Positions 40,382 to 54,980 of a DNA stretch of 64,000 nt are shown piece after piece; position 1 is the stretch's first letter, and each line of letters opens with the position of its first letter. The stretch is taken from IMG/VR virus record IMGVR_UViG_3300024341_000001; one strand, 5' to 3'. Origin of the DNA: a virus (taxonomy: Duplodnaviria; Heunggongvirae; Uroviricota; Caudoviricetes). Both the position numbers and the translations under genes were made by a program. The notes beneath the pieces were generated by a model. That model was not told where the DNA came from. It made no database searches and was given only the letters and a program-made list of their open reading frames with translations.

Positions 40382-40789
40382 ATGTTAAAGTCTGCATTAT
40401 TTACAATAAAACAAGACGAATTATTATCAAAAGATAAGCCACTTGAATTCATTTCAACATCTATACTACATGCTTTTAAACAAGTCAATCCAAAAATCAC
40501 AAAAGAATTAATAACAGTTTTTACCCAATTAAAAGGTGATTCAATGTCTTTTTGGGGCGAAGTAGATGAACGCCCATTACTAAAAGAAGATATATTGCAA
40601 ACAGTGGCCAACGCTGTGGATCATATTGGTCCAAATGGTGAAGGGCTCAAAGCACAAATTACGAAGACTGGTACTGAAGTGTGTATAGTAATAGGTTTTG
40701 TTTATAAAGAAATTACACCTGAATTGTTGGAAAAAGAAAATCCACAACACCATAAAAATGTACAAAGATGGATGGAGATAGGCACATAA
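40382..40789 (+). CDS. hypothetical protein
   Basis: 135 aa. Confidence 0.35.
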   Translation: MLKSALFTIKQDELLSKDKPLEFISTSILHAFKQVNPKITKELITVFTQLKGDSMSFWGEVDERPLLKEDILQTVANAVDHIGPNGEGLKAQITKTGTEVCIVIGFVYKEITPELLEKENPQHHKNVQRWMEIGT

Positions 40790-41052
40790 AGCGCACTAAA
40801 ATATTTACATCTGTGCTCGAGAAAGTTAAAAGTGACAATATAAACAAATACGGAGTATTGACATGCGAAATATGCAAACAGCAAATAGAACACGAGATAT
40901 ACCATTTTGATCATATAATACCAGTATCACGGTATTCCAAAAAACGTACTCCCTTTCGTATGAATGGTGTTCGTAATTTACAAATTACGTGTGAGCGATG
41001 CAATTTAAAGAAAAGTAATAAAATAAAGAAAGTGAAATTTAAGACATTATGA
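40768..41052 (+). CDS. HNH homing endonuclease
   Basis: CEICK...HFDHIIPVSR...NLQITCERCNLKKS. Confidence 0.7.
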   Translation: MDGDRHIKRTKIFTSVLEKVKSDNINKYGVLTCEICKQQIEHEIYHFDHIIPVSRYSKKRTPFRMNGVRNLQITCERCNLKKSNKIKKVKFKTL

Positions 41053-41891
41053 AGATATTTGAATTTCGTAGAAATGAATGGGGTATAGCTTTTAAACGCA
41101 TTTCAGATGCGTTGCATAGGTATGCGCCTGATTGGGTCGAATGGACCAACTATGAAAATTGTGACATTATGATTGTTCATGTAGTTGGAGGCGGAGAAAT
41201 TCCTGCATTAGAGATGCCTAAACCGAAAGTGGTGATTCAACATTGTTATTTTACCGCCAGTGCGCATGAAATAGATTACGCAAAATATTGGGCACAATCT
41301 ATTATGGCCGTTTCATTTCATGACTTACGTAAATATACTGATAAAGATATCCCTTATTATGGTATGCCATGGGGTGCAGACGATAATGTTTTTTGTCGCA
41401 CAAATACGGGTAATCGTGCCATTAAAGTAATTGCTACGGGGCATATCGCTGAAACTGAGGCCATAGATAAAGTATATGAAGCAGTCAAACAATTAAAACA
41501 AACTTTATATCATACCGGACAAAATTTTGGATGGGACAAACGATTCTACAGATACTTAGATTATATGCCAGATAATGAGTTCGCTGAGGTACTTAATGGC
41601 ACACAATATATATCAGCGTTACGTTTTATTGAAGGCTTCGAATTAATGGCAATTGAAGGCTTGTTTTGCGGGGCACGCCCGATTATACCAGATGATCCAA
41701 CTTATGATTGGTATCGGGAACATGCATATACAATAGTCAAGGACAAAGATATAGTAGAACAATTAGTTGAAATTCTAAAAGATACCCCGCGACCAATGGA
41801 TGAAAATGAACGCTTAGTGATTGTAAATAAATTTAAATGGTCTCATTTAATTGGAGACTTTTTTACCACTTTAAAACAAAGGATAAATTAA
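41049..41891 (+). CDS. GT-B fold glycosyltransferase (GT4-like)
   Basis: EGFELMAIEGLFCGARPI matches the E-x7-E donor-binding motif EGFGLxxLEAMAxGxPVI. Confidence 0.5.
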   Translation: MKIFEFRRNEWGIAFKRISDALHRYAPDWVEWTNYENCDIMIVHVVGGGEIPALEMPKPKVVIQHCYFTASAHEIDYAKYWAQSIMAVSFHDLRKYTDKDIPYYGMPWGADDNVFCRTNTGNRAIKVIATGHIAETEAIDKVYEAVKQLKQTLYHTGQNFGWDKRFYRYLDYMPDNEFAEVLNGTQYISALRFIEGFELMAIEGLFCGARPIIPDDPTYDWYREHAYTIVKDKDIVEQLVEILKDTPRPMDENERLVIVNKFKWSHLIGDFFTTLKQRIN

Positions 41892-42322
41892 TGGAGGCTC
41901 AAACACGTTACTATGTACCTACTTTTGCCGAACTTATAGATCGTCTTAGTATAGTTATCTTGAAGTCAATATTCGCATCTGAGAATTCTGCAGCATACGA
42001 AGAAGAACAAAAACTTATCATGGCCGATATCAATATGTTATTAACTACAACACCGTCAGTTAGTGCTGATATGATTCGTGCTATATTAATAGTTATGCTA
42101 ACCAATAGGTATATATGGGAGAACGAAAGCAAGGCGCGTGCTGGTGGTTCAGAACAAGATAAACTTTTAAAATTGACGCACTCGATAAATGGTGTACGTA
42201 ATACAGCTAAGAATGTTATTTCGCGTGAACGCGGAGAGCGTGTAGACTTAAAAATAGATGCGCTGGCTGCAGGGTTAATTCAGGAGTTCGGTAATTGGAA
42301 TATATTTAAAGGCGACAAATGA
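41891..42322 (+). CDS. hypothetical protein of the sugar island
   Basis: ATG at 41891 overlaps the upstream stop (TAATG); the track ORF 41837.. is an upstream extension. Confidence 0.3.
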   Translation: MEAQTRYYVPTFAELIDRLSIVILKSIFASENSAAYEEEQKLIMADINMLLTTTPSVSADMIRAILIVMLTNRYIWENESKARAGGSEQDKLLKLTHSINGVRNTAKNVISRERGERVDLKIDALAAGLIQEFGNWNIFKGDK

Positions 42323-43167
42323 AATTAACTGCCGTCGCAACTTGTAGAAATGATGGTTATCGGGGTGATTTACATTTACGAGTACCATTTAGTATTAATG
42401 CATTGACCGCCACATTCGATGAAGTAATTTATGTTGATTGGAATTCACCGTCAGGTATAGACTTGATAACAGCGCTTGGAGATGCCATAAATAAAACAGG
42501 TAAATTACGAGTATTAAAAGTAAATAAGGCACAAACAGATCAAGTCACAAAGAACGATCCTGGTGCGCCGGCAAGTTGTGGGTTACTAGGTAATAATATG
42601 GCAATACGTAGGTCCACAGGAGACTGGATATTAATAACATCATTAGATTCGATTGTACCCGATCGAGCATCATTTGAAAAATTAACCGCAGACCCAAAAA
42701 TAGGTTGGGTCATTTCTAGGCATGATGTAGATTTTGCGGAATTAAAACAATTTAATGCTAAAGATATAGAAGTTGTTCAAAGGTATTTTAGGGAAAATCT
42801 ACCAAGATATGGTGGGCACGGTTTTAGTGGGGCCTGCGCTGGTGATGTGTGGTCTATCCTTGATTGTTGTGGTGATTTTCAGTTTTTTCATAAAGACGTT
42901 TTATTTGAAATACGTGGTTATGAAGAAGAATATTTTTATAAAGGGTACACTGATAGTAATTTAAATAAGAAAGCTATTCTCGCAGGATATCCCGTAAAAC
43001 CATGTTTTGATATCGCTACCATGCATATGAGTCATCCGGGATATGGTTTCGGTGGAACCGGCTCACGAATAAATGACATCTACGGTTGTTTAATAAATGC
43101 AGGTGCTACCAAGAACGCCGCCACATGGGGCGCGTCTCCATTTACATTAGAAGAATTTACTGTATGA
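42319..43167 (+). CDS. GT-A fold glycosyltransferase (GT2-like)
   Basis: IYVDWNSPSG and LITSLDSIVPD resemble the GT2 nucleotide-binding/DXD motifs; RGYEEEYFYKG region. Confidence 0.4.
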   Translation: MKLTAVATCRNDGYRGDLHLRVPFSINALTATFDEVIYVDWNSPSGIDLITALGDAINKTGKLRVLKVNKAQTDQVTKNDPGAPASCGLLGNNMAIRRSTGDWILITSLDSIVPDRASFEKLTADPKIGWVISRHDVDFAELKQFNAKDIEVVQRYFRENLPRYGGHGFSGACAGDVWSILDCCGDFQFFHKDVLFEIRGYEEEYFYKGYTDSNLNKKAILAGYPVKPCFDIATMHMSHPGYGFGGTGSRINDIYGCLINAGATKNAATWGASPFTLEEFTV

Positions 43168-44525
43168 AAATTTTGTTCTGTATATATGAATTGGATTATG
43201 CTGATCATATAGCGATAGCGCACTTATCCGCTATTGCTAAAAAACGTGATCATCAGACATTTTTCTGTGCTTTAACAGATTATCCAACTGTTTTGAATTC
43301 ATATAAACCGGACATTGTAGCTTATTCTTTAAATGTTTATGGATATAAAGAAATGATTGATGCACATAAATTAGCGAAAACAAAACACAATTTTTTATCT
43401 ATAGCTGGTGGGCCTCAGATTACTTTTGCACCGCAAGATTTCGAAAACACGGCCATCGACGCTTTCTGTGTTGGCGAGGGAGATCTTGTATTTGATGACT
43501 TTCTTAAATGTGTAGAAAATAATGAATCCTACGACAATGTTTTAAATATAATAACAAAAGAAAAGATAAATCCTATACGACCACTCATTAGTGACTTAAA
43601 TATTTTGCCCGAAGCGGACAGGGATTTGGTGTTGAATAATTCCTTCTTAAAGAATACTCCTAAAAAAACCTTTTACGCTACAAGGGGATGCCCGTTCTTT
43701 TGTCATTATTGTGCAAATAGCGCGTATCGTGCTTTGTATAAAGGGAAGGGTAAATCTGCTAGACGGTTTTCACCAGATCGAATTATTGATGAAATACAAC
43801 GTGTTCGTAAAAATTATCGCACAGAGTTCATAAAATTCGGGGACGATCTTTTCGCATTAAAAGCAGATAGTTGGCTTGATGCGTTTACCCGTAGATATAA
43901 GAAGGAAGTAGATTTGCCGTTCAATTGCTATTTACGCATTGACCACGTAGATAAAGATTTACTTGCTATGTTGAAGTCCGCCAATTGCTACTCCGTTCAT
44001 CTATCCGTTGACAGTATGTCAGAACATGTGCGCGAAGCAGTATTGGGACGACATATGCAAAAGATCGATGTAACGAAAACAGCGCGTATGATCGCAGATA
44101 CAGGAATACGCACGTGGGTTAATTTTATGTTGGCGGCTCCTGAATCTACGGTGAAAGATGATATGGATATCATTGATTTTGGTTATAAAGGTAAGGTTAC
44201 ATATTTGGCCTGTTCAACTACAGTACCAATGAATGGTACCAAACTTTATGAATATAGTTTACAAAAAGGTATTCTTGATCCAACATATGTAGGAGATATG
44301 ACAGACTGTTCAAAGAAATCCCCGTACAAGTCTTTTTCTGAACGTGAAAAAGAAATACGCTATAATATTTTCTTACTTGGAAGTTTTGCGGCTAAATTAC
44401 CTAATCCATTACGCGCGTGTATGAAATTACTTATACGCTATATAAAACCTAATAAATTATTTATATTTGTCAGAGATAAGTATTACAAGTATAGTATAGA
44501 AAACAGAATTTTTAAATTAGCATAA
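43164..44525 (+). CDS. B12-binding radical SAM enzyme (class-B rSAM, methyltransferase-like)
   Basis: CPFFCHYCAN = CxxxCxxC radical-SAM cluster; N-terminal cobalamin-binding-like domain; ATG 43164 overlaps the upstream stop (ATGA). Confidence 0.6.
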   Translation: MKILFCIYELDYADHIAIAHLSAIAKKRDHQTFFCALTDYPTVLNSYKPDIVAYSLNVYGYKEMIDAHKLAKTKHNFLSIAGGPQITFAPQDFENTAIDAFCVGEGDLVFDDFLKCVENNESYDNVLNIITKEKINPIRPLISDLNILPEADRDLVLNNSFLKNTPKKTFYATRGCPFFCHYCANSAYRALYKGKGKSARRFSPDRIIDEIQRVRKNYRTEFIKFGDDLFALKADSWLDAFTRRYKKEVDLPFNCYLRIDHVDKDLLAMLKSANCYSVHLSVDSMSEHVREAVLGRHMQKIDVTKTARMIADTGIRTWVNFMLAAPESTVKDDMDIIDFGYKGKVTYLACSTTVPMNGTKLYEYSLQKGILDPTYVGDMTDCSKKSPYKSFSEREKEIRYNIFLLGSFAAKLPNPLRACMKLLIRYIKPNKLFIFVRDKYYKYSIENRIFKLA

Positions 44526-44527
44526 TT

Positions 44528-45181
44528 ATGGAATTATTTAGAGAAAAACAAAGAGAAATAACTATTACAAAACAAGAGCTCATTGATTTTGAAAGTGATG
44601 TCGCTGCTCGATGGGAACAAGGGCAAATAAAAGCTCCTGTTCACCTGTCTTTTAATAATGAGGATTATTTGATCGAATTATTTCAATTTATTCATCCAGA
44701 TGACTGGGTGTTTACAACTTGGCGAAATCATTATCATGCATTATTACACGGAGTTCCCAAAGATGAGTTATTAAATAAAATATTGGCAGGCCAAAGCATA
44801 TCATTTCAATCTCCACAACATCATCTTTATACGTCAGCTATCGTTGGTGGTATACTACCTATTGCAGTTGGTGCGGCGGCTGGACTGAAACTAAATCTTA
44901 ACACAACTCGCATGGTGTGGTGCTTTGTTGGTGATATGGCCAGTGAAAGTGGTATCTTTTACGAAGCAGTGAAGTATTCGGTACGTAATGATCTTCCTAT
45001 TCATTTTGTTATAGAAGATAATGGATTAAGCACAAATACGCCAACACAGGAAGCATGGGGTAAATTACGATCGGCCGAATTATTTGTAGATATTGAATCC
45101 CCCGAAAAATATATATCATATTTTAGTTATAAACGTGAACGCTATCCGCATGTAGGGATAGGGAAATGGATACATTTCTAA
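44528..45181 (+). CDS. TPP-dependent enzyme, PP-domain subunit (E1-alpha/transketolase-N-like)
   Basis: GDMASESGIFYEA...N...FVIEDNG = GDG-x(25-30)-N thiamine-diphosphate fold. Confidence 0.55.
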   Translation: MELFREKQREITITKQELIDFESDVAARWEQGQIKAPVHLSFNNEDYLIELFQFIHPDDWVFTTWRNHYHALLHGVPKDELLNKILAGQSISFQSPQHHLYTSAIVGGILPIAVGAAAGLKLNLNTTRMVWCFVGDMASESGIFYEAVKYSVRNDLPIHFVIEDNGLSTNTPTQEAWGKLRSAELFVDIESPEKYISYFSYKRERYPHVGIGKWIHF

Positions 45182-45726
45182 TGGACTATTTTGATGAATT
45201 AAAGCGAGCAATGAAGTATTTGGGCGAACAATCAAATACAAAGTTTATCGGACAATCAGTGGTGTGGGACGGTCATGCCTTATTTAAAAGTTTAGTAGAT
45301 GTGCCAATGGAAAAACGTATTGAATTACCAGTATTCGAAGATTTCCAGATGGGGCTTAGTATTGGTATGGCCTTGGAAGGAATAGTTCCAATCAGTATTT
45401 ATCCAAGAGCCGACTTTTTAATCATAGCTGCGAATCAAATAACTAACCATTTGGCAAATATACGTAAAGTATCCGAAGGCGGGTATAAACCTAAAATTAT
45501 AATACGAACTAGCGTCGGCGCTATCGAGCCGCTATATCCTGGTCCTCAACATTGTCAGGATCATACTGAGGCATTGAAGTTATTATGTCGCGGAGAAATT
45601 GAGGTTGTCCAATTAAAAAGTAAGTATGATATATTATATGCTTATTATATTGCATATACCCGAGAAGATGGTAAGTCTACAATATTAATTGAATACGGTG
45701 ATCTATATCATAAGGTGGAGGCATGA
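45166..45726 (+). CDS. TPP-dependent enzyme, pyrimidine-binding subunit (E1-beta/transketolase-C-like)
   Basis: FIGQSVVWDG...FEDFQMGLSIGMALEG transketolase-type Pyr domain; overlaps the partner gene. Confidence 0.5.
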   Translation: MDTFLMDYFDELKRAMKYLGEQSNTKFIGQSVVWDGHALFKSLVDVPMEKRIELPVFEDFQMGLSIGMALEGIVPISIYPRADFLIIAANQITNHLANIRKVSEGGYKPKIIIRTSVGAIEPLYPGPQHCQDHTEALKLLCRGEIEVVQLKSKYDILYAYYIAYTREDGKSTILIEYGDLYHKVEA

Positions 45727-46436
45727 TCGAGGTAAGTATTTTTGGTGCGGCAATACGTACTAATATTTGGCTTGAGTTATACGAGAATTTTCGCAAGGCA
45801 GGCGTTTCCTTTGAAATGATATTTGCTGGTCCTAACATACCATCATATACTTTACCCGATAATTTTAAACACATTCATACGTCGGTTAAACCCGCACAGG
45901 CAATTGAGATTACCAGACGAGCCTGCACCGGTCGATTTATAATGAATACGGCTGATGATATGTGTTATCCTGACGATATGTTAGCTAGATTTGTAGACGC
46001 GTGGGAAAAAGCACCGAATAAAAAAACAATGTTTTCGGGTAGATATGCCTCCGCAGATCTTATAAGTATTGAGAGTATACAACATTACAATATGAATGTT
46101 ATGACTAGTCCGTTAGTGCCCTTAAATGGATTCTTATCTAGAGAAACATCGGATGAAATCGGAGGGCTTGATACTAATTTTATAGGATTATATTGGGACC
46201 TGGATCGAGCATTACGTCTTTATGAATTAGGCGGACTTGTGCAAATTTTGTGGGATATCGCTGCATATGAAACACAGCCACATCAATTGTTAAATAATTA
46301 TGGTGCGGCAGATCGTATGTATTTAAATTTTCTTTATGGGGAATATGGGAAACAGAAAAGAAAGAAACCAGTAGATCATTATAAGGATAATGATCTATTA
46401 ACAATATCACAGGGGCAAAAAGGAAGCTGGACATGA
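45723..46436 (+). CDS. hypothetical protein of the sugar island
   Basis: 237 aa. Confidence 0.3.
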   Translation: MIEVSIFGAAIRTNIWLELYENFRKAGVSFEMIFAGPNIPSYTLPDNFKHIHTSVKPAQAIEITRRACTGRFIMNTADDMCYPDDMLARFVDAWEKAPNKKTMFSGRYASADLISIESIQHYNMNVMTSPLVPLNGFLSRETSDEIGGLDTNFIGLYWDLDRALRLYELGGLVQILWDIAAYETQPHQLLNNYGAADRMYLNFLYGEYGKQKRKKPVDHYKDNDLLTISQGQKGSWT

Positions 46437-47386
46437 AAAAAATATTAGTTTGTGGTTGCACAGGATTTATGGGGTATAATATTTCGTATTATTTTAGACA
46501 CGATTACGAAGTAGTGGGCGTTGCTCATACTAAAGCAAATTGTCCTGATAATATAAAATTATTATCGTGCGATCTAACAACGCAAAAAGGCGTAGATCAT
46601 GTGATGAGTTATGGCCCATATGATGTAATAATTCAAGCAGCCGCAACAACATCTGGATCGAAAGATATAACAACAAAACCTTACATACATGTAACTGACA
46701 ATGCTGTAATGAACTCATTGTTATTACGTGCGGCTTATGAACACAGTGTACCGCAGTTTATATTCCTGAGTTGTGGGGTGATGTATCAACCTGGGGACAC
46801 GCCGAGAAAAGAAACGGACTATGATGAATCGGATAAAATAGTACCGGCTTATTTTGGTGTCGGGTGGACTAAGGTATATATCGAAAAAATGTGTTAATTT
46901 TATTCAAGATTAGGTCGTACTAAACATATGGTTATACGACATTCGAATACTTTTGGACCACAAGATAAATATGATTATGAGCACTCACATGTATTCGGCG
47001 CCACGGTTAGAAAAGTAATGGATGCGGAGTACGGAGACACGATTACGGTGTGGGGTAATGGCACTGATACAGCACGCGATTTGATCTATGTCGACGATGT
47101 AGTACATTTTATTGATTTGGCTATTAACTTACAACATAAACCATACGATTTAGTGAATGTGTCTTATGGCAAAGCTATAACTGTAAAAGAAATGGTTGAA
47201 AGTATTATAGTGCAATCAGGCAAGGATTTAAAAATAACATATGACACTTCTAAACCCGCGATTCCAACTATTCTAGCGTTAGATAATAATAAAGCATTAG
47301 TTGACTATGGATGGAAGCCGCTACATACATTTTCACAGGGTATTTTTAAAACAATGAAATGGTATGGATCTGAATTTAAAGGCTAA
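46433..47386 (+). CDS. NAD-dependent epimerase/dehydratase interrupted by one in-frame TAA (46895..46897)
   Basis: GCTGFMG Rossmann motif. YFGVGWTKVYIEKMC = YxxxK block. The TAA sits in frame at one residue position of the conserved segment, and ...RHSNTFGP continues in the same frame (46928..47386 in the track). Confidence 0.5.
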
Positions 47387-48143
47387 ACAATTACGTAAGA
47401 AAATGTTTGAGACTGCGGTAAGGGCTGGTCGCGGTCATCTTGGCGGTGCGTTGTCATGCATGGACATATTAGTGTCGTTATATTATGGCGATATTGTTAC
47501 AAATGATACTAAATTTATTTTAAGTAAAGGCCATTCTGGGATTGCTTTATATACTGTACTTGCGGAACGTAACATTATATCTAACACCGAATTACATACA
47601 TTCTGCAAAAATGGTAGTTTGTTATCAGAGCATCCTAACAATCATATTCCTGGAATCATAACTATAACAGGATCGTTAGGTAATGGACTTGGTATTGGCG
47701 CAGGAATAGCTTTTGCCAAAAAACTTAATAATACTCCGGACAATGTTTTTGTATTAATGGGAGATGGCGAGTGCAATGAGGGGTCAGTGTGGGAAGCCGT
47801 ACGTTTTGCAGCTGTTCATGCCCTAACAAATTTACGAGTCATTGTTGATTGCAATGGATTTCAGTCCACCGATGCTGTGGATAAAAACACCACATATAGA
47901 CAGTTAATGAAAATATGGTCGGCATTTGGATGGATGTCGTATGTTGTGGATGGACACAATATTTTGCATTTGATAGAAGCCTATAAAAATGCATCTATAG
48001 TAACACCGACAGTTTATATAGCTCGTACAGTAAAAGGTAAAGGAATATCCTTTATGGAGAATAATGTAACAAGTCACCACGGATTACCAAATAAGGGTGA
48101 TACAATTTCTGCATTGGAGGAATTATCATATGGACTTGCGTGA
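47364..48143 (+). CDS. transketolase, N-terminal subunit
   Basis: GHLGGALSCMDI, SKGH, GSLGNGLGIGAGIA, MGDGECNEGSVWEA, IVDCNG. Confidence 0.7.
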   Translation: MDLNLKAKQLRKKMFETAVRAGRGHLGGALSCMDILVSLYYGDIVTNDTKFILSKGHSGIALYTVLAERNIISNTELHTFCKNGSLLSEHPNNHIPGIITITGSLGNGLGIGAGIAFAKKLNNTPDNVFVLMGDGECNEGSVWEAVRFAAVHALTNLRVIVDCNGFQSTDAVDKNTTYRQLMKIWSAFGWMSYVVDGHNILHLIEAYKNASIVTPTVYIARTVKGKGISFMENNVTSHHGLPNKGDTISALEELSYGLA

Positions 48144-49008
48144 TGCTATTTTTAATGAATTAATATTATTGGCAGATACATCTAAAGATGTATTTATATT
48201 ATCAGCCGACATGGGTGCTACCGAATTAGACAAATTTAAAGCAAAATATCCAAAACAATTTGTCAATGTTGGTATATCAGAACAGAATCTCATAAACGTT
48301 GCTGCCGGCATGGCAATGGAAGGTAAGAGAATATATGTATACACTATTGCCGCATTTCTTATTCAACGTGCCTTAGAACAGATAAAAGTAAATCTATGTG
48401 CTATGAAGTTACCTGTTACGTTAATAGGCATCGGTGGTGGGATGAGTTATAGTTATGATGGATTAACACATCATATACCACAAGACATAGGAATCTTGAA
48501 TACATTACCTAATATTGAAATTTTTGTACCTTTTGATGAAAGTAGTATGAGGAATTCGGTACATATTCTCAAGAACTCAACGACACCTCGGTATATTCGA
48601 CTTGACAAAGGAATTTATCCAGACTTACCAGCAATAACTTCCAATAATTATGTTCATGTTTTGAGGCAAGGAAGAACTCGGGCCGTTTTAACTTATGGCA
48701 CTTTAACGCACGAAGCATTGGATACTTTTCCGGAGGCTGGATGCATTTGTGTAGAGCGATTAAAACCATTAGATGAGGGTGAATTTCTGAAAGCCATAAA
48801 ACCATATCAAGAATTAATAGTATATGAGGAACATTCAAAAATAGGTGGATTAGCCTCTATTGTAGCATCGCTTTTATTACAACATGGGTTGGACAAGAAA
48901 TTAAATGTTTATGCGTTTGAAGATGAATATTGTAATATAGCGGGAGATCGTATTTATATCAATAATAAATTTTTAAAGAAAGTGGAGAGTAATAATGTCG
49001 TGGACTGA
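48097..49008 (+). CDS. transketolase, C-terminal subunit
   Basis: GISEQNLINVAAGMAMEG pyrimidine-binding motif plus C-terminal domain. Confidence 0.7.
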   Translation: MIQFLHWRNYHMDLRDAIFNELILLADTSKDVFILSADMGATELDKFKAKYPKQFVNVGISEQNLINVAAGMAMEGKRIYVYTIAAFLIQRALEQIKVNLCAMKLPVTLIGIGGGMSYSYDGLTHHIPQDIGILNTLPNIEIFVPFDESSMRNSVHILKNSTTPRYIRLDKGIYPDLPAITSNNYVHVLRQGRTRAVLTYGTLTHEALDTFPEAGCICVERLKPLDEGEFLKAIKPYQELIVYEEHSKIGGLASIVASLLLQHGLDKKLNVYAFEDEYCNIAGDRIYINNKFLKKVESNNVVD

Positions 49009-49699
49009 TCATGGTGCCGTGAATACAATTAAGGGGTTAGCAAGGGAATTTAAAGTAGAAACATATATAGAAACAGGCACATTTCGAGGACAAGGAATAC
49101 AAATAGCGGCGCGTTATTTTAAACACGCTTATTCATGTGAAATCATTGAGGATTTTTATACTGATGTTGTGTTAAGAACTATAAATAAACATAATATAAA
49201 AATTTTCCACATGGATAGTTCAAAATTCTTAAAATATATATCTACAACATTAAATGAACCGCTCATTTATTATTTGGATGCTCATTTTTACGATCCCAGT
49301 CTACCTAAAGAATTACGTTTTGTTGTAAAACAAGAATTAGCATCAATGGCCCCATCCAATAACTGTATCATTATAATACATGATTTTGATACTAGAAACG
49401 GATTAGGCCATATTACATATGACGGCATACCTTTGGATTTTGAGATAGTGCGTGATAACCTTTTGAAGATAAATCCGCGATTTTCTTTTTATACCAATTA
49501 TAAAGAAGCCTGCGATATAGTAACCGAGAAAGACTTCATAGATGGTAAAATGGATCCGTTGTTGCTTGACGATGAAATGAGAGATACGTTAAAATTCATA
49601 TGGTCAGCCCCACAGAAAACTTATCGTGGGCTATTGTACTGTATACCTAGAGATGTAAATGCATCTAAATATCATTTAAGAAAGGTGAATTGGAGATGA
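48995..49699 (+). CDS. putative SAM-dependent methyltransferase (FkbM/TylF-like)
   Basis: YIETGTFRGQG glycine-rich motif-I-like segment. Confidence 0.35.
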   Translation: MSWTDHGAVNTIKGLAREFKVETYIETGTFRGQGIQIAARYFKHAYSCEIIEDFYTDVVLRTINKHNIKIFHMDSSKFLKYISTTLNEPLIYYLDAHFYDPSLPKELRFVVKQELASMAPSNNCIIIIHDFDTRNGLGHITYDGIPLDFEIVRDNLLKINPRFSFYTNYKEACDIVTEKDFIDGKMDPLLLDDEMRDTLKFIWSAPQKTYRGLLYCIPRDVNASKYHLRKVNWR

Positions 49700-50421
49700 A
49701 TGTACTAATAACTGGCGGAACGCATGGTATCGGATGGGCCATCGCTAACAGATTTGCTATCGACGACCGTAACGAACATATTTATATAGCTGCTCGACAT
49801 GTAGATGATTTAGCTCATTCCTATGTATATGAAGGTATACAAGCCGATTTTACGAACACAGTAGATATAGGAAAAGTTGCTGAACAGATAAAGAATCTAC
49901 ATATCGACATTCTTATAAATAATGTAGGAGGTGGAGGGCGTTGGGGTACAGATGATGTTTTAACAACTCCCGAAGAATCTTGGGATGGTGTGATATTAAA
50001 AAATTATGAAACGGCACGACAGTTAACCCTGGCCGCGTTGCCGTGGATGAAACAAAATAATTTTGGCCGCGTTGTTACTATTTCGTCCATCTATGGTAAG
50101 GAATCCGGAGGACGTCCGTGGTTCACTGTAGCAAAAGCAGCTGAGATTGCGTTAATGAAATCGTTAGCGATACGAAAAGAACTGGTTCGACATAATATTA
50201 CATTTAATACGGTATGTCCTGGTGCGATAGCAATTCCTGGGACGGGATGGGATAAATTAACGCCGGAAGAAAGAAGTACATTCGAGGAAACATTACCGTT
50301 AGGGCGTATGGGAACGCCGGAAGAAGTTGCCGCTTTGGTTTGCTTCTTATGTTCGGAAGAGGCGAGTTTAATAAATGGAGCATGTATAACCGCAGATGGC
50401 GGAGAAAGCAGGAGTTTTTAA
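49690..50421 (+). CDS. short-chain dehydrogenase/reductase (SDR)
   Basis: LITGGTHGIGWAIA = TGxxxGIG; catalytic Ser/Tyr/Lys region. Confidence 0.6.
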   Translation: MEMNVLITGGTHGIGWAIANRFAIDDRNEHIYIAARHVDDLAHSYVYEGIQADFTNTVDIGKVAEQIKNLHIDILINNVGGGGRWGTDDVLTTPEESWDGVILKNYETARQLTLAALPWMKQNNFGRVVTISSIYGKESGGRPWFTVAKAAEIALMKSLAIRKELVRHNITFNTVCPGAIAIPGTGWDKLTPEERSTFEETLPLGRMGTPEEVAALVCFLCSEEASLINGACITADGGESRSF

Positions 50422-51419
50422 TGTTGAGACAATCAGAATACGATGAATTTAGAGGAAAGAAAGTTTTGGTAATAGGCGGCACAGGATTAATAGGTCGTCC
50501 TGTTGTTGATATTTTAGTTAACGCCGGCGCCATCGTTACTGTGGTATCATTAGACGATCTTCAGCCAAATCGATTAGCAGAATATGTATATTTGGATCTA
50601 CGATATTTCAATGCCGCAGAGTTTATAACTAAAGGAATGGATTATGTATTTCATTTGGCGGGTATCAAAGGATCGATTGAAGTTACAAAAACGAAACCAG
50701 CTAGTTTTTTTGTGCCCTTGTTACAATTTAATACAAACATACTTGAAGCATGTCGTATTAATAACGTAAAAAAAGTCGCCTTCACTAGTTCTATTGGCGC
50801 ATACGAAAGTGCTGAAATATTTCACGAAGACGGTATAACGCAAGGGCTACCGATGGATATGTATCCAGGTTGGGCAAAGCGCATGGCTGAGTTACAAATA
50901 CAGGCTTATAAAGAACAATACGGTATTAAAAATTTTGTCGTATTGCGTCCTTGTAATGTCTATGGTCCTGGAGATAACTTCGATCCAAATAATGCAATGG
51001 TTGTGCCTTCGTTGATGTATCGTATTGCTTCGGGCGAGAACCCTGTAAAAATATGGGGGGATGGTTCAGCAATTCGTGACTTTGCTTATAATGTAGATGT
51101 AGCTGAGGGTATTATACAAGCAATGCATTATATGCCAGATGTAAATTATATTAATTTGGGCAGTGGCAAGGATTATACAATAAAAAATTTAGTTGATACA
51201 CTACATGAGTTTATTGATTTCAATCATGAATGGGATACAACAAAATCAAACGGATTTCCAAAACGCGTTATGGATATAACGAAAGCGCGTATGTTAATAA
51301 ACTTTGAACCTATCACTACATTACGCGATGGATTAGAACATACGTGGAAATGGTTTTTAGCAAACAAAGAAGAGTATTTAAAGAGAAAGAATTATTTTAA
51401 TGAAGATAATAGACACTAA
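50421..51419 (+). CDS. NAD-dependent NDP-sugar epimerase/reductase
   Basis: VLVIGGTGLIGRPV Rossmann; YPGWAKRMAE YxxxK; ATG 50421 overlaps the SDR stop (TAATG); the track start 50340 is an extension. Confidence 0.55.
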   Translation: MLRQSEYDEFRGKKVLVIGGTGLIGRPVVDILVNAGAIVTVVSLDDLQPNRLAEYVYLDLRYFNAAEFITKGMDYVFHLAGIKGSIEVTKTKPASFFVPLLQFNTNILEACRINNVKKVAFTSSIGAYESAEIFHEDGITQGLPMDMYPGWAKRMAELQIQAYKEQYGIKNFVVLRPCNVYGPGDNFDPNNAMVVPSLMYRIASGENPVKIWGDGSAIRDFAYNVDVAEGIIQAMHYMPDVNYINLGSGKDYTIKNLVDTLHEFIDFNHEWDTTKSNGFPKRVMDITKARMLINFEPITTLRDGLEHTWKWFLANKEEYLKRKNYFNEDNRH

Positions 51420-51909
51420 ATTTGAAAAAGCAAAATTAATTATACCAGAGGTATTCTATGATTTTCGTGGCGAATACTTAGAGACCTTCAACAAAGAGAA
51501 CTACAAAGCATTAAATGTACCAGATGAATTTATACAAGATGATATTTCAATTTCATACAAGCATGTCCTTCGAGGATTCCACGGTGATTTTAAAACATGG
51601 AAATTGGTACAATGTGTGTACGGCAGTATATACGTTGTTATTATTGATAATAACAAAGAGTCTAAAACATATTATCAATGGCAAGCATTTACACTAAATG
51701 ACAAAAATCGTTATCAGTTATTAGTGCCGCCAGGATTCGGCAATAGTCTGCTAGCTATGACGGACATTATCGTGTATAGTTATAAGCAGACTACATATTA
51801 TGAACGTGCGTCGCAGTTTACTATAGCTCCATTTAATCCTTATCTAGGAATTTACTGGCCGATAGCAAAAGAGAACATTATTATATCAGAAAGGGATAGA
51901 AATGCCTAA
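51400..51909 (+). CDS. dTDP-4-dehydrorhamnose 3,5-epimerase-like (RmlC cupin)
   Basis: DFRGEYLETF, VLRGFHGD, KLVQCVYGSIYVVIID, LLVPPGFGNS follow the RmlC motif order. Confidence 0.65.
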   Translation: MKIIDTKFEKAKLIIPEVFYDFRGEYLETFNKENYKALNVPDEFIQDDISISYKHVLRGFHGDFKTWKLVQCVYGSIYVVIIDNNKESKTYYQWQAFTLNDKNRYQLLVPPGFGNSLLAMTDIIVYSYKQTTYYERASQFTIAPFNPYLGIYWPIAKENIIISERDRNA

Positions 51910-52927
51910 TTATCTTATAACCGGTGCCACTGGATTTGTTGGTTCACATATGATTGATTATTTATTAGCTAATACTGATGGCATGATTTACGCTTCTAGA
52001 CGTTGGCGCAGTCGTGACGAGAATATAGTACATTTGTACGGTAATCCGCGAGTCAATTTCATAGAGGCGGATCTGATGGATCGTGGCAGTCTAAGTTTGT
52101 TATTGCGAAAAGCAAAACCAGATATTATTTGGCATTTTGCCGCCCAGAGTTTTCCTGAAACGAGTTTTATTTATCCGATACATACTTTACAAACAAATAT
52201 CATTGGAACTGCCAATTTATTAGATGAAATACATCTTGCGGTATTAGATGGCCGTATAGATCCGATTATAGTAAGTGTTAGTTCCAGCGAAGTATATGGT
52301 ATGCCGGATCCTTCAGAAGTGCCTATAAAAGAAACTAACCCAATTAGAGCGGCAAATCCATATAGTATATCAAAAGTCGGACACGATCTGATGTCACAGT
52401 ATTATCATAAAGCATTTGGATTAAAAATAATAACTACCAGGATGTTTAGTCACGAAGGTGCACGCCGGGGAAGGAAATTTGCATTATCTAGTTTTGCATA
52501 TCAAATTGTACAAGGCGAAATGCAGTATAGACAAGATATAAATAATCGCTCTTATGGAAATTCAAAATATATAATTCGTGTGGGAAATCTTAATTCTGTG
52601 CGCACTTATGCTCATATAGACGATGCTGTACATGCTTATTGGTTAGCCGCCAATAAATGTACAGTCGGCGAAGTTTATAATATAGGTGGCAATCACACAT
52701 GTACTGTCGGTGAAGCATTAAATGATTTAATATCTAAAAGTTATATACAACCAACTGATTTCAAAATAGAAATAGATTTAGCATTAATCAGGCCTACTGA
52801 TATTACACTACAAATACCCGATTGTACTAAATTTATGCAAGCTACTGGATGGAAACCAACAAAAGGTCTTGATGATATAAATAAGGATCTTTTAATTTAT
52901 TGGAGAAACGTATTGCGCCGGTCGTAA
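51902..52927 (+). CDS. NDP-sugar 4,6-dehydratase/epimerase (extended SDR)
   Basis: ITGATGFVGSHMIDYLL; SSSEVYG; YSISKVGHD YxxxK. Confidence 0.6.
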   Translation: MPNYLITGATGFVGSHMIDYLLANTDGMIYASRRWRSRDENIVHLYGNPRVNFIEADLMDRGSLSLLLRKAKPDIIWHFAAQSFPETSFIYPIHTLQTNIIGTANLLDEIHLAVLDGRIDPIIVSVSSSEVYGMPDPSEVPIKETNPIRAANPYSISKVGHDLMSQYYHKAFGLKIITTRMFSHEGARRGRKFALSSFAYQIVQGEMQYRQDINNRSYGNSKYIIRVGNLNSVRTYAHIDDAVHAYWLAANKCTVGEVYNIGGNHTCTVGEALNDLISKSYIQPTDFKIEIDLALIRPTDITLQIPDCTKFMQATGWKPTKGLDDINKDLLIYWRNVLRRS

Positions 52928-52946: not shown

Positions 52947-54980
52947 ATGATAGTACATAGAAAAGACGGTTGGCACGTATTGTCCGAAAAAGGCAAGAAT
53001 TTGGGCGGGCCGTATTCATCACGTTCAGCGGCTGTACATAGACTTCAACAGGTTGAATATTTTAAGCATAAAGGAAAAGCAGGTGCTTTAGGTATTCCTG
53101 ATCGGGACGTAAAAACACGTCCACGCGAATTCTCTACACCAGAAAATTGGCACTTTAATGTGCAACAGCATAAAGCGCATAAGGCTGGAGAACATTTCGA
53201 TTTACGACTTGTTGATCCACGTACCGGAATTGCACATAGTTGGGCCGCTCGTAACTTACCTAAGTTTCCAGGCGAAAAAGTTCTTGCTGTGCATCAACCT
53301 GATCATACTGCAGAGTACTCGGCATGGTCTGGTGAAATCAAATCAGGTTACGGCGCTGGAACAGTAAAGTTATTCTCAGCGGATAAGGTTGAAGTTACTA
53401 AAAGTACACCTGATCATGTATCTTTTAATGTGTATAAGTCTAATGGCGACACTGAAAAATATACTTTAATACATACTGGTGGGGATGATTGGCTGTTTAT
53501 GAACTCTACACCTACGCGAGATACTCGACCAGAAGTTAACATTTCGAAACCTAAATTTCAAAGTATAAAGCCTGAATCCATCGATGTAACAAAGTCGACC
53601 GAGATATTAGCACCGAAGTATGATGGAGCAATGAATGCGTTTTTGCTTAGACGTGGAATGCCTATTGAAATATACTCTTATCGTCCAAGCAAGAAAGGAC
53701 CTGCAAAGTTAATTAATCATACGTTTCGTACTGGACTTCATACTGCAATAGTTCCGGAGAGTATGCCAGGCAAAACAGTATTATTAGGAGAACTATTTGC
53801 AAAAGATAGAACATCTGGTAATGTTTTATCATCAAGAGACACTGCAGCTAGATTATTGTCAAATGTATGGCGTTCAAGAGAACTCCAAGAAAACGCGCCG
53901 CTTGATCATGTAGTTTTTGATGTGGTTCGTTATCAAGGTAAAGATGTAAGTAGTCATCCATATAGTGAAAAACTCGAGATACTAAAAAATATTTCAAAAG
54001 AAATACCAGAATTAAAAATGCCGCCGCTAGCGACGACTATAAATGAAAAACAAGTATTACTAGATGAAATACGTTCTGGCAACCATCCGTTAACACAAGA
54101 GGGCGTTGTAGTATATGATTTAAATAAGTCGGTACCATTGAAGGCAAAATTATTCAAAGATTATGATGTACGTATAATGTCGGTATTTCCGGGGGAAGGA
54201 AAATATAAAAATAAAGCTGCTGGTGGATTTACTTATTCATACAATGGTAAAGAGGAAATTGGTCGGGTTGGTAGTGGATTCACAGATCAAATGAGAAAAG
54301 AAATGTTTGAACTTCCAAATAAATATGTAGGACAGGTAGCGCGTGTGCTGGCGCAGGAGAAATTACCAAGTGGTGCACTTCGTATGCCTGTATACAAAGA
54401 CATTAGAAGTGAAACTTGGCCAAGACGCAAACAAGCTGCATTACTTGAACCGTTTCACAAAAAAGCACCGGATCCAAAAATACATAAAGGTTTAAAGACT
54501 GTTCAGACAGCTACATTAAACGATACATCTGCACCAATGCCTGTATTAGGAGATTCTATGAGTAATTATCATCCAGCATTTACTAAGACTGGATTAATTA
54601 AACTGAAATTTAAACCAACAAGACCAGATGCGCAATTAAACATAGCCAGATTAAAGGAAATGCGTATACCGCCGGACGATCCACAACAAATGCAAACCGA
54701 AGATAGTATACCGATTCTGGGTGATAATTTGGCAAATATGCCAAAGACGGGCGGAATAGATTGGAAACATATGACAAAAGAATATTTGTTACCATCATTG
54801 GTTGCTGGCCCTGTAATTGGTACTGCGGTAACTGCAGCCACCTCATCGAAAAATGAGTTTAATAAAAATATTGGAAAAGGAATAGCCACTGGTATAGGTA
54901 TCGACCTAGCCACTGGATTAAGTATGGGATTATGGAATCAACGGAAGAATCTGAAGAAACTATTCAAGACAAAACTATAA
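52947..54980 (+). CDS. LigD-like 3'-phosphoesterase + ATP-dependent DNA ligase fusion with Gly-zipper C-terminus
   Basis: PE domain: HKAGEHFDLRLV, SWAARNLPK, LAVHQPDHTAEY, GYGAGTVKLF match the LigD PE H-x-D-x-R/H/Y core. Ligase motifs: KYDGAM (I), LLGELF (III), EGVVVYD (IV), KAKLFKDYD (V). C-terminal VAGPVIGTAVTAA...GIATGIGIDLATGLSMGL. Confidence 0.65.
   Translation: MIVHRKDGWHVLSEKGKNLGGPYSSRSAAVHRLQQVEYFKHKGKAGALGIPDRDVKTRPREFSTPENWHFNVQQHKAHKAGEHFDLRLVDPRTGIAHSWAARNLPKFPGEKVLAVHQPDHTAEYSAWSGEIKSGYGAGTVKLFSADKVEVTKSTPDHVSFNVYKSNGDTEKYTLIHTGGDDWLFMNSTPTRDTRPEVNISKPKFQSIKPESIDVTKSTEILAPKYDGAMNAFLLRRGMPIEIYSYRPSKKGPAKLINHTFRTGLHTAIVPESMPGKTVLLGELFAKDRTSGNVLSSRDTAARLLSNVWRSRELQENAPLDHVVFDVVRYQGKDVSSHPYSEKLEILKNISKEIPELKMPPLATTINEKQVLLDEIRSGNHPLTQEGVVVYDLNKSVPLKAKLFKDYDVRIMSVFPGEGKYKNKAAGGFTYSYNGKEEIGRVGSGFTDQMRKEMFELPNKYVGQVARVLAQEKLPSGALRMPVYKDIRSETWPRRKQAALLEPFHKKAPDPKIHKGLKTVQTATLNDTSAPMPVLGDSMSNYHPAFTKTGLIKLKFKPTRPDAQLNIARLKEMRIPPDDPQQMQTEDSIPILGDNLANMPKTGGIDWKHMTKEYLLPSLVAGPVIGTAVTAATSSKNEFNKNIGKGIATGIGIDLATGLSMGLWNQRKNLKKLFKTKL

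Follow-up and report, generated by a model that had tools for sequence, protein, structure and literature searches.

A truncated E1-type thiamine-diphosphate enzyme beside a class-B-like radical-SAM protein in a predicted deoxysugar cassette of a myovirus-like phage

Introduction

What might a phage build with a two-subunit thiamine-diphosphate (ThDP) enzyme of unusually small size that is encoded directly behind a radical S-adenosylmethionine (radical-SAM) protein? This question is raised by IMG/VR virus record IMGVR_UViG_3300024341_000001, a stretch of 64,000 nt (hereafter the window) from an uncultivated, myovirus-like phage of the Caudoviricetes, with identical protein copies found on contigs of up to 215 kb. 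Within a 12-kb sugar cassette (41049-52927), a radical-SAM gene (43164-44525) is followed by two overlapping genes, ending at 45726, for a diphosphate-binding (PP) and a pyrimidine-binding (Pyr) subunit and, further downstream, by a split transketolase. A reading of the window from its letters alone (hereafter the sequence-only reading) had proposed these genes, and all of them are found where it placed them, on the + strand.

C-branched deoxysugars, which are rare, give rise to antibiotic activity and serological specificity. For the E1-type enzymes that are thought to install these branches, the support is genetic only. The pairs AviB1/B2, Pau11/12 (= Plm8/9) and EvdU5/EvdS3 are full-length and E1α/β-like, and are assigned a pyruvate-derived two-carbon branching at C-4 of 4-keto sugars, followed by ketoreduction, based on gene knockouts, heterologous complementation with deoxysugar genes and homology (PMC4425429, PMC4802897, PMC10338323). 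For YerE/YerF in yersiniose A biosynthesis, two of these sources cite a proposed ThDP-dependent two-carbon branch from pyruvate on a 4-keto-3,6-dideoxyhexose, then reduction (PMC4425429, PMC10338323). The large glycan islands of marine myophages are usually assumed to serve host surface remodelling against superinfection (PMC7029224).

This work describes the small pair, here called mini-E1: a known kind of enzyme in a new architectural form, encoded in a cassette of which no characterised example was found. With ~400 residues, in two chains or naturally fused, a minimal E1 would lend itself well to work on structure, mechanism and biocatalytic C-C bonding on sugars, and knowledge of its product would show more clearly what marine myophages make with these islands.

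Two small genes encode a truncated E1

The α gene (44528..45181, +) encodes a PP subunit of 217 aa that matches Pfam E1_dh (3.8e-15) and TPP_enzyme_C (6.2e-6). Its match to the NCBIfam model of pyruvate dehydrogenase (PDH) E1α (TIGR03182; 9.8e-22) covers profile positions 16-180 of 315, and the α family profile matches human E1pα in the PDB (1ni4_A; 9.7e-18) over residues 43-211 of 365. The β gene (45166 or 45181..45726, +) encodes a Pyr subunit of 181-186 aa with matches to Pfam Transket_pyr (1.8e-3) and NCBIfam PDH E1 beta (5.3e-7); its family profile matches E1β structures in the PDB at 1.4e-11 to 7e-9, over the first ~175 E1β residues. Both the family consensus and the alignment with the homologue from cyanophage S-SM2 begin at the second Met of β, which probably starts at ATG 45181 (181 aa). 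The overlap of the two genes seen in the sequence-only reading stands, with a probable length of one base of the α TAA (TAATG) in place of 16 nt.

AlphaFold2 models, made as single chains for α and β separately, have a mean confidence (pLDDT) of 87.5 and 93. The top Foldseek match of α is human E1pα (2.5e-11), with template-modelling (TM) scores against E1α of 0.69-0.72 on the query and 0.43-0.45 on the target; β matches E1β (1.8e-11), and scores 0.81-0.83 on the query and 0.46-0.49 on the target against E1β Pyr domains. As the target TM reaches only 0.43-0.49, roughly half of each E1 subunit is absent. Compared to E1α, ~30 N-terminal and 110-150 C-terminal residues are gone, the latter amounting to the C-terminal third of that subunit, and β ends after the Pyr domain and lacks the transketolase_C domain (PF02780) that docks E2. 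Profile coverage and target TM thus bear out that both subunits are shorter than those of E1 or transketolase. Comparison with BFVD structures gave no informative match, and no E2 or E3 family (2-oxoacid_dh, biotin_lipoyl, E3 families) is found among the Pfam matches of island genes 41049-52927.

The α metal motif reads G135-D136-M137 ... E163-D164-N165, with Met instead of Gly as third residue, and aligns with GDGAANQG...ENN of human E1α; its G, D and N are invariant in 42 homologues. What had been described as a GDG-N motif is therefore a PP-type motif indeed, but literally GDM ... EDN. H39, W65-R66-x-H68, G135-D136-M137 and N165 are family-invariant. In β, E58 (PVFE) aligns with the cofactor-activating Glu in PISE of E1β, and Q128-H129-C-Q with QHSQ of human E1β; both are invariant in 41 homologues. 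By profile, fold and alignment, the small pair is a truncated 2-oxoacid-dehydrogenase E1 with its catalytic residues kept.

The mini-E1 family is abundant and occurs as a natural fusion

The α subunit is encoded on 465 IMG/VR contigs. Its top 120 database matches are all short homologues of ~200-220 aa, and β has 511 homologues, nearly all of them 170-205 aa among the 120 listed. Hundreds of homologues, at 50-78% identity, share the short lengths of ~200-220 aa (α) and 175-190 aa (β). Mini-E1 is also present in SAR11 single-cell genomes and in a Desulfomonile metagenome-assembled genome, and the SAR11 carriers make the family cellular as well as viral. The architecture is unusual, yet the family is abundant, and the pair is not peculiar to this island. 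Chance is excluded as an explanation, each of the proteins having hundreds to thousands of full-length homologues. No characterised member was found for the mini-E1 family or for the radical-SAM family.

The gene for β adjoins that for α in 94 of 97 loci, and the two form one open reading frame (ORF) of 402 aa in cyanophage S-SM2 (SSM2_198), of which residues 7-198 match α (39%, 5e-42) and residues 234-402 match β (33%, 9e-27); they are fused in P-TIM68 as well. A single PHROG family, phrog_34187 ('unknown function'), spans both. This adjacency and natural fusion support the proposal of the sequence-only reading that the two ORFs encode the halves of one ThDP enzyme.

For the neighbourhood analysis, ORFs around α were clustered in 88 loci, and homologues were counted within 10 kb of α in 97 loci. 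An RmlC-like epimerase lies ~0.5 kb upstream of α in 67/88 loci, and epimerases/reductases of the short-chain dehydrogenase/reductase (SDR) type occur in 80/88 loci, at ~3 per locus. Homologues of the 4,6-dehydratase are found in 72/97 loci, and a DUF4254-like protein in 39-50 loci (50/97 within 10 kb). Directly downstream of β, 47 of the 88 loci carry a DegT-family gene, for which the top NCBIfam model is RfbH (the 3-dehydrase of 3,6-dideoxyhexose pathways; 226 bits, sub-cutoff); some loci have a 2-oxoglutarate/Fe(II) oxygenase after β instead. By analogy, this is the gene set expected for a carbon-branched 4-keto-6-deoxy or 3,6-dideoxy sugar. In the set of 86 non-redundant mini-E1 loci, this phage alone shows a close homologue of the radical-SAM protein, and 14 loci have distant, non-adjacent B12-type radical-SAM proteins.

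Some individual loci deserve description. In four loci from Pelagibacteraceae single cells (L014-L017), the mini-E1 genes (46-49% identity) are accompanied by RmlC-like and DegT genes and by one for a distant B12-type radical-SAM protein ~3 kb upstream. The closest non-identical mini-E1 (69-75% identity; L005-L007) lies on Ga0376279_0000024 (164,629 bp), labelled at NCBI as 'Candidatus Omnitrophica bacterium'; since this contig also has phage-like genes, among them those for NrdD and a UvsW-like helicase, it is probably a large phage that was wrongly binned. An acetolactate-synthase (ALS)-type ThDP enzyme, an aldo-keto reductase and a PanB-like hydroxymethyltransferase are further members of its island, bringing the ThDP enzymes to three in total. 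The pelagimyophage paper mentions glycan islands and does not mention a mini-E1-type enzyme.

The radical-SAM protein is class-B-like

The protein encoded by 43164..44525 (+; 453 aa) combines a B12-domain-like N-terminus with a radical-SAM core (Pfam Radical_SAM, PF04055; 4.3e-15), in which the cluster motif CxxxCxxC reads CPFFCHYC and C176-x3-C180-x2-C183 is invariant. At the N-terminus, the match to Pfam B12-binding (PF02310; 8.6e-6) reaches 26 bits, below the gathering score of 32.1; homologues carry precomputed PF02310 matches. Of the solved structures, AprD4 (6fd2) ranks at the top (3e-12), over residues 139-374 and hence the radical-SAM core only, and residues 47-223 align with residues 64-246 of the B12 methylase TokK, including its cobalamin domain, at 6.8e-7. 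All NCBIfam class-B models score far below cutoff: TIGR04072 is highest (81 bits versus 360), followed by HpnR (62 bits), PhpK (59 bits) and the AprD4 model NF033070 (49.2 bits versus a cutoff of 500).

The sequence-only reading had called the protein a class-B enzyme that performs cobalamin-dependent C-methylation. The B12-domain-like N-terminus, at a sub-gathering score, is compatible with the first part. The C-methylation is unproven, the top solved-structure match being the dehydratase AprD4, and methylation and dehydration or rearrangement appear comparably likely. In the alignment of 28 homologues (A3), C35, C102, C255 and C275 are also invariant, outside CxxxCxxC. These four cysteines possibly form a second metal or Fe-S site, or have a structural role; such extra invariant cysteines are not known to be a standard feature of class-B methylases. 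A tblastn search of the protein against GenBank phages gave no match, and no characterised class-B enzyme acting in a glycan cassette for nucleoside-diphosphate (NDP)-deoxysugars was found in the literature searched.

Related cassettes carry a full-length E1 in the same slot

At E <= 1e-30, the radical-SAM protein has 1213 representative homologues. Homologues of full length (455-460 aa, 53-60% identity) are numerous and come from Desulfobacterales, Syntrophales, Verrucomicrobia, Omnitrophota, Parcubacteria and one alphaproteobacterium, and eight IMG/VR contigs carry close homologues. From three bacterial contexts and 80 metagenome loci, a cassette was defined with a core of a 4,6-dehydratase, E1α (~320 aa), E1β (~350 aa, with PF02780), the class-I methyltransferase u308, a FabG-like SDR, an Fcl-like reductase, the radical-SAM protein, an RmlC-like epimerase and a second Fcl-like reductase. 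A split transketolase with an aldo-keto reductase, a GHMP kinase, a NUDIX protein and Methyltransf_21 are optional members. Identities between window and cassette are 59-64% for the Fcl-like reductase, 54-58% for the radical-SAM protein, 49-51% for the SDR, 46-48% for the RmlC-like protein and 45% for the dehydratase. The 59-64% match belongs to the Fcl-like gene at 50421..51419, the counterpart of which lies directly upstream of the radical-SAM gene in bacterial cassettes of the L098/L099 type.

Between mini-E1 and the full-length cassette E1s, identity amounts to 28-31%. The α subunit scores 80 bits against cassette full-length E1α with BLAST and 39 bits against the best E1α in the PDB with phmmer, a comparison across different methods that is suggestive only. 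Cassettes of this type, with E1 genes at full length, occur in bacteria and also on further large phage contigs; one 219-kb viral contig (L184) holds nearly the whole window gene set, but with a full-length E1. Judged from gene position, mini-E1 fills the slot that is held elsewhere by a full-length E1 pair.

Around close radical-SAM homologues, 39 non-redundant loci of at least 9 kb each were compared. An E1 pair is present in 21/39 (three of them mini: L133, L138 and L165), a split transketolase in 15/39 and either in 29/39. The FabG-like SDR occurs only alongside an E1 pair (14/21 versus 0/18, p = 8e-6), and the aldo-keto reductase is more frequent where a split transketolase is present (7/15 versus 2/24, p = 0.015), which suggests modules of a ThDP-dependent C-C enzyme and a ketoreductase. 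The link between the radical-SAM protein and ThDP enzymes that the sequence-only reading had seen in the window therefore holds at the family level, whereas the adjacency to the small pair is lineage-specific. Comparative genomics likewise supports its broader notion, ThDP-dependent two-carbon chemistry combined with a radical-SAM reaction on a deoxysugar, but not the C-methylation that it had specified.

Across E1-containing loci, the RfbH-like DegT gene and a close radical-SAM homologue rarely meet: DegT is present in 1/22 loci with the radical-SAM gene and in 46/85 without it (p = 1.7e-5). This anticorrelation is compatible with the radical-SAM protein as an alternative means of deoxygenation and equally with two separate cluster lineages.

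The slot between E1β and the FabG-like SDR has varying occupants. In bacteria it holds the u308 methyltransferase (L098 5487-6413, alignment A6) and in several phage-type cassettes a 234-aa protein, a homologue of which lies at this position in L184 and L133. The u308 protein and the window's 234-aa protein are unrelated, and motif I of the latter is weakly methyltransferase-like. An equation of u308 with the window's 237-aa protein was also considered and rejected, the two being unrelated by profile (class-I methyltransferase versus glycosyltransferase family 2 (GT2)-like). Tandem arrays of homologues of the 237-aa protein (45723-46436) lie upstream of the radical-SAM homologue in L181 (5786-9833), L182 (4954-10001) and L186 (6781-9996), with up to 9 GT2-like paralogues within one 21-kb locus, which hints at the assembly of a long or complex glycan. 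On JGI24729J20445_1000001 (419,765 bp; L165, L166 and L167), the same locus of radical-SAM and mini-E1 genes recurs at offsets of 109,258 and 218,516 bp. This further carrier of both genes thus resembles a ~109-kb element in concatenated form, which may be an assembly artefact or a true concatemer.

Comparison with known systems

Like AviB1/B2 and its relatives, mini-E1 would be a two-subunit E1-type ThDP enzyme within a deoxysugar cluster with a ketoreductase, and the bacterial cassettes related to the window carry full-length pairs of that size class. They differ in size (325 aa for Pau11 and 345 aa for Pau12 (PMC4425429), versus 217 aa for α and 181-186 aa for β) and in setting, the known pairs belonging to actinomycete secondary metabolism and not to phage or glycan islands. 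With YerE/YerF, mini-E1 shares the proposed chemistry, and the RfbH-like 3-dehydrase in marine mini-E1 loci completes the 3,6-dideoxy logic. YerE is, however, a single-chain flavoprotein of the ALS type, whereas the window pair matches E1_dh and Transket_pyr and not ALS-type Pfam domains; by this analogy, the resemblance lies in mechanism only and not in family membership.

The E1 components of PDH, branched-chain 2-oxoacid dehydrogenase (BCKDH) and AcoA/AcoB share with mini-E1 the fold and catalytic core of both subunits, the metal motif, the cofactor-activating Glu and the β His, and differ in that the subunits are truncated here and stand in a nucleotide-sugar tailoring context. The closest phage parallels are SSM2_198 of S-SM2 (annotated as 'transketolase central region-containing protein') and its P-TIM68 counterpart, which belong to the same family and also lie in a phage glycan-gene island, but as one fused chain with a canonical GDG metal motif and no radical-SAM gene nearby.

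The class-B radical-SAM enzymes TokK, GenK, Fom3 and HpnR have the same order of a B12-domain-like Rossmann N-terminus and a CxxxCxxC radical-SAM core; unlike them, the window protein approaches no curated family cutoff and its B12-domain match is sub-threshold. AprD4, the radical-SAM diol dehydratase of apramycin C3' deoxygenation, also modifies a sugar, has a B12-like N-terminal domain and is the top solved match, although the score against its model is far below cutoff and the match is confined to the radical-SAM core. AprD4 is not known to use cobalamin despite that domain. Literature searches on caryophyllose/transketolase, and on B12-type radical-SAM proteins with nucleotide sugars or O-antigen, returned nothing relevant.

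A proposed pathway and its alternatives

We infer that this part of the phage genome belongs to a cassette for the tailoring and transfer of an NDP-6-deoxysugar, in which every gene function is a predicted one. On balance, though by no wide distance, we favour mini-E1 as an E2-independent minimal E1 that would act as decarboxylase/carboligase on an NDP-4-keto-6-deoxysugar. Starting from the domain identities, truncations, conserved catalytic residues, gene fusion and neighbourhood statistics, the pathway could run as follows. The 4,6-dehydratase (51902..52927) would oxidise and dehydrate a host-supplied NDP-hexose to an NDP-4-keto-6-deoxysugar, which the RmlC-like enzyme (51400..51909) would epimerise. 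The α and β subunits would assemble, probably as α2β2, into a minimal ThDP enzyme; as this enzyme is without everything needed for acyl handover to lipoyl-E2, it would act alone. It would decarboxylate a 2-oxoacid, most likely pyruvate, to hydroxyethylidene-ThDP, and the two-carbon unit would be joined to the keto carbon of the sugar to give a C-acetyl branched sugar. Following the logic of YerE/YerF and AviB1/B2, the FabG-like reductase (49696..50421) could then convert the acetyl into a 1-hydroxyethyl branch. On the same NDP-sugar scaffold, the radical-SAM protein would abstract a H atom, leading either to a cobalamin-dependent C-methylation of an unactivated carbon or to an AprD4-type radical dehydration that yields a deoxy-keto position. 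A second two-carbon unit can be added by the split transketolase in this scheme, and the glycosyltransferases at 41049-41891 and 45723-46436 would pass the product to an acceptor. This final transfer is probably carried out by the GT2-like protein of 45723-46436 together with the weakly glycosyltransferase-like protein of 41049-41891.

A bolder and rather doubtful extension would make mini-E1 the founding member of a family of autonomous, E2-independent minimal E1-type ThDP carboligases of marine and freshwater phages and SAR11, which, with a new sugar-specific B12-type radical-SAM branch, builds C-branched and otherwise carbon-modified deoxysugars for attachment by phages to the surfaces of hosts or virions. 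If true, the radical-SAM protein would be a cobalamin-type radical-SAM enzyme on a nucleotide-sugar glycan intermediate, for which no characterised precedent was found, and phages would be a major reservoir of branched-sugar chemistry. The radical-SAM family (> 1,200 representative clusters), tied to the same cassette, offers a defined substrate context for an uncharacterised class-B-like branch.

Several points weigh against the pathway favoured here. Both the assembly and the interface active site of mini-E1 are presumed, with α and β modelled singly, and the C-terminal 40 residues of α are poorly predicted (pLDDT 40-73). The region lost from α holds, in E1, the phosphorylation/active-site loops and an active-site histidine, such that catalysis may differ. 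At 28-31% identity to the full-length cassette E1s, an equal function follows from position and not from orthology, the likeness to AviB1/B2 is drawn from description and gene context and not from sequence comparison, and the co-occurrence statistics, which use related, non-independent contigs, are indicative only. A search of the whole window for a nucleotidyltransferase found none, and one cassette gene (46433-47386) is interrupted by a nonsense codon. For the radical-SAM step, the B12-domain match stays below the Pfam threshold and the closest solved structure is not a methylase.

This last point leads to the possibility, tentative but of real substance, that the radical-SAM protein is an AprD4-like radical dehydratase/deoxygenase or another rearrangement enzyme that makes a deoxy-keto position and not a cobalamin C-methyltransferase, thus doing the job of the RfbH-like enzyme, a pyridoxamine-phosphate-dependent 3-dehydrase, in marine mini-E1 loci. 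The ranking of AprD4 above TokK, the sub-gathering B12-binding match, the near-absence of DegT beside it (with a window that itself lacks DegT) and the four further invariant cysteines all favour it. Yet the AprD4 model scores lower than the B12-methylase-type models TIGR04072, HpnR and PhpK, the N-terminal B12-like domain is present and aligns with the cobalamin domain of TokK, and the DegT anticorrelation may mirror two cluster lineages (marine phage versus anaerobe) in loci that are not independent. The donor of mini-E1 could differ too: a transketolase- or acetoin-cleaving-type transferase that uses hydroxypyruvate, 2-oxobutyrate or a ketose, or a decarboxylase of a sugar 2-keto acid (nonulosonic or octulosonic), strikes us as rather unlikely. 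Donor specificity of E1-type enzymes is not readable from alignments, the window has a second two-carbon-transfer enzyme so that donors may differ, and two mini-E1 loci (L008 and L009) carry genes for a NeuB-like protein and a CMP-sugar synthetase (CTP_transf_3). The strongest and closest neighbours are, however, the RmlC-like, 4,6-dehydratase, RfbH-like and SDR genes and not ulosonic-acid genes, NeuB and a CMP-transferase are both absent among the Pfam-scanned island genes, and the pairing with a FabG-like ketoreductase fits the reduction of a newly added acyl branch.

Decay and phosphonate metabolism would each explain the small size of the subunits in another way. That the two ORFs are decayed, non-catalytic remnants of a dehydrogenase E1 operon agrees with their heavy truncation and with the nonsense codon in a neighbouring window gene, but the same short lengths with invariant catalytic residues in hundreds of homologues, the 465 viral contigs, the in-frame fusion in cultured cyanophages and the confident, compact models make it very improbable. 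Subunits of ~170-220 aa and a split into PP and Pyr chains also resemble ComDE and Ppd-type enzymes, and fosfomycin biosynthesis pairs a ThDP decarboxylase with a class-B radical-SAM enzyme. A sulfopyruvate/phosphonopyruvate-decarboxylase-type split enzyme in a phosphonate (Fom2/Fom3-like) pathway with the B12-type radical-SAM protein nevertheless has next to no chance, and was rejected on profile and fold ranking: no such decarboxylase model in NCBIfam or Pfam matches at E <= 0.01, and E1α/E1β lead by at least 5 orders of magnitude, the split decarboxylase AzcB/C reaching 2.6e-6 with lower TM versus 1.8e-11 for E1β. The placement that the sequence-only reading had named as fatal to its own proposal is thus not what was found. 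All conserved neighbours are moreover nucleotide-sugar enzymes, and phosphoenolpyruvate (PEP) mutase is absent from the Pfam matches of the island genes and 10 other large ORFs, although no search aimed at PEP mutase was made, in the window or elsewhere.

Organisation of the island

Between a free-standing HNH endonuclease gene (40768-41052), directly at the upstream edge of the sugar island, and a gene for a LigD-like DNA ligase (52947-54980), 15 tightly packed genes follow each other on the + strand, many with 4-nt start/stop overlaps. The first island gene (41049..41891) encodes a putative glycosyltransferase of 280 aa with a weak match to phrog_2170 (1.5e-4) and no Pfam match, and is followed by those for a small DUF4254-like protein of 143 aa (41891..42322; sub-threshold Pfam DUF4254, 1.8e-3) and a 282-aa protein (42319..43167) without Pfam, NCBIfam or PHROG match, homologues of which occur in 16/97 mini-E1 loci. 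The end of the latter gene and the start of the radical-SAM gene share a 4-nt ATGA overlap.

Downstream of β lies the gene for the GT2-like (GT-A fold) glycosyltransferase of 237 aa (45723..46436), assigned from family-profile evidence: Pfam Glycos_transf_2 is found in 15/25 members of its family (alignment A4), the profile matches the glycosyltransferase 6p61 in the PDB (6.5e-5), and D78-D79 is invariant. It is followed by an Fcl-like SDR epimerase/reductase (46433..47386; 317 aa in sister assemblies) with Pfam Epimerase on both halves and GDP-L-fucose synthase as the top NCBIfam model (118 bits, sub-cutoff). In this gene, the window has T at 46895 where four independent assemblies (L001-L004) have G, which turns GAA into TAA (46895-46897) and splits the 317-aa SDR into ORFs of 154 aa and 152 aa. 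T46895 is the sole difference from L001, L002 and L004 over overlaps of 12.8-20.7 kb, and may reflect either a genuine nonsense variant or a mistake in sequencing or assembly.

The split transketolase starts 1.6 kb after β, and not 2 kb as the sequence-only reading had estimated. Its N-terminal (PP) subunit (47364..48143, 259 aa) matches PF00456 Transketolase_N (6e-25) and the NCBIfam transketolase model (3.5e-68), and its C-terminal subunit (48130..49008, 292 aa; gene call taken from sister contigs), with Pyr and C-domain, matches PF02779 Transket_pyr (2.3e-26) and PF02780 Transketolase_C (3.9e-9). The pair (47364-49008) thereby has the layout of split-gene transketolases, with Transketolase_N on one chain and Transket_pyr plus Transketolase_C on the next.

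The 234-aa protein (48995..49699) has no Pfam match and possibly a class-I methyltransferase-like fold; its family profile (alignment A5) gives weak PDB matches (E 0.05-0.6), mostly to methyltransferases around motif I. Single-sequence PDB searches with this product and with that of 45723..46436 gave noise only. Next come the FabG-like short-chain ketoreductase (241 aa; Pfam adh_short_C2, 1.3e-38), the Fcl-like NDP-sugar epimerase/reductase of 50421..51419 (332 aa; Pfam Epimerase, 4.9e-43; top NCBIfam GDP-L-fucose synthase, 151 bits, sub-cutoff), the RmlC-like NDP-4-keto-6-deoxysugar 3,5-epimerase (169 aa; Pfam dTDP_sugar_isom, 1.1e-42; NCBIfam rmlC, 137 bits versus a cutoff of 155.75) and the NDP-hexose 4,6-dehydratase (341 aa; Pfam GDP_Man_Dehyd, 9e-64). 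The latter is equidistant from the dTDP-Glc, LegB, Gmd and CDP-Glc NCBIfam models (95-131 bits, all sub-cutoff). Searches of the whole window for kinase, DegT, aldo-keto reductase and ALS-like genes found none, a megablast of the 12-kb island against GenBank phages gave no match, and the tRNA scan was empty.

Beyond the island, the LigD-like ligase (677 aa) combines a LigD 3'-phosphoesterase domain, an ATP-dependent DNA ligase and an OB domain, and ends in a hydrophobic, Gly/Ala-rich tail with a membrane-like look that is odd for a ligase. A tail-sheath-like gene lies at 57016-58659. A LAGLIDADG-like domain is found inside a 589-aa ORF (29706-31475); this ORF and the HNH gene may be mobile elements that mark the island boundary. 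Near the start of the window, a protein of the SPFH/Band-7 family (Pfam, 9.2e-20) is encoded on the - strand at 1648-2607.

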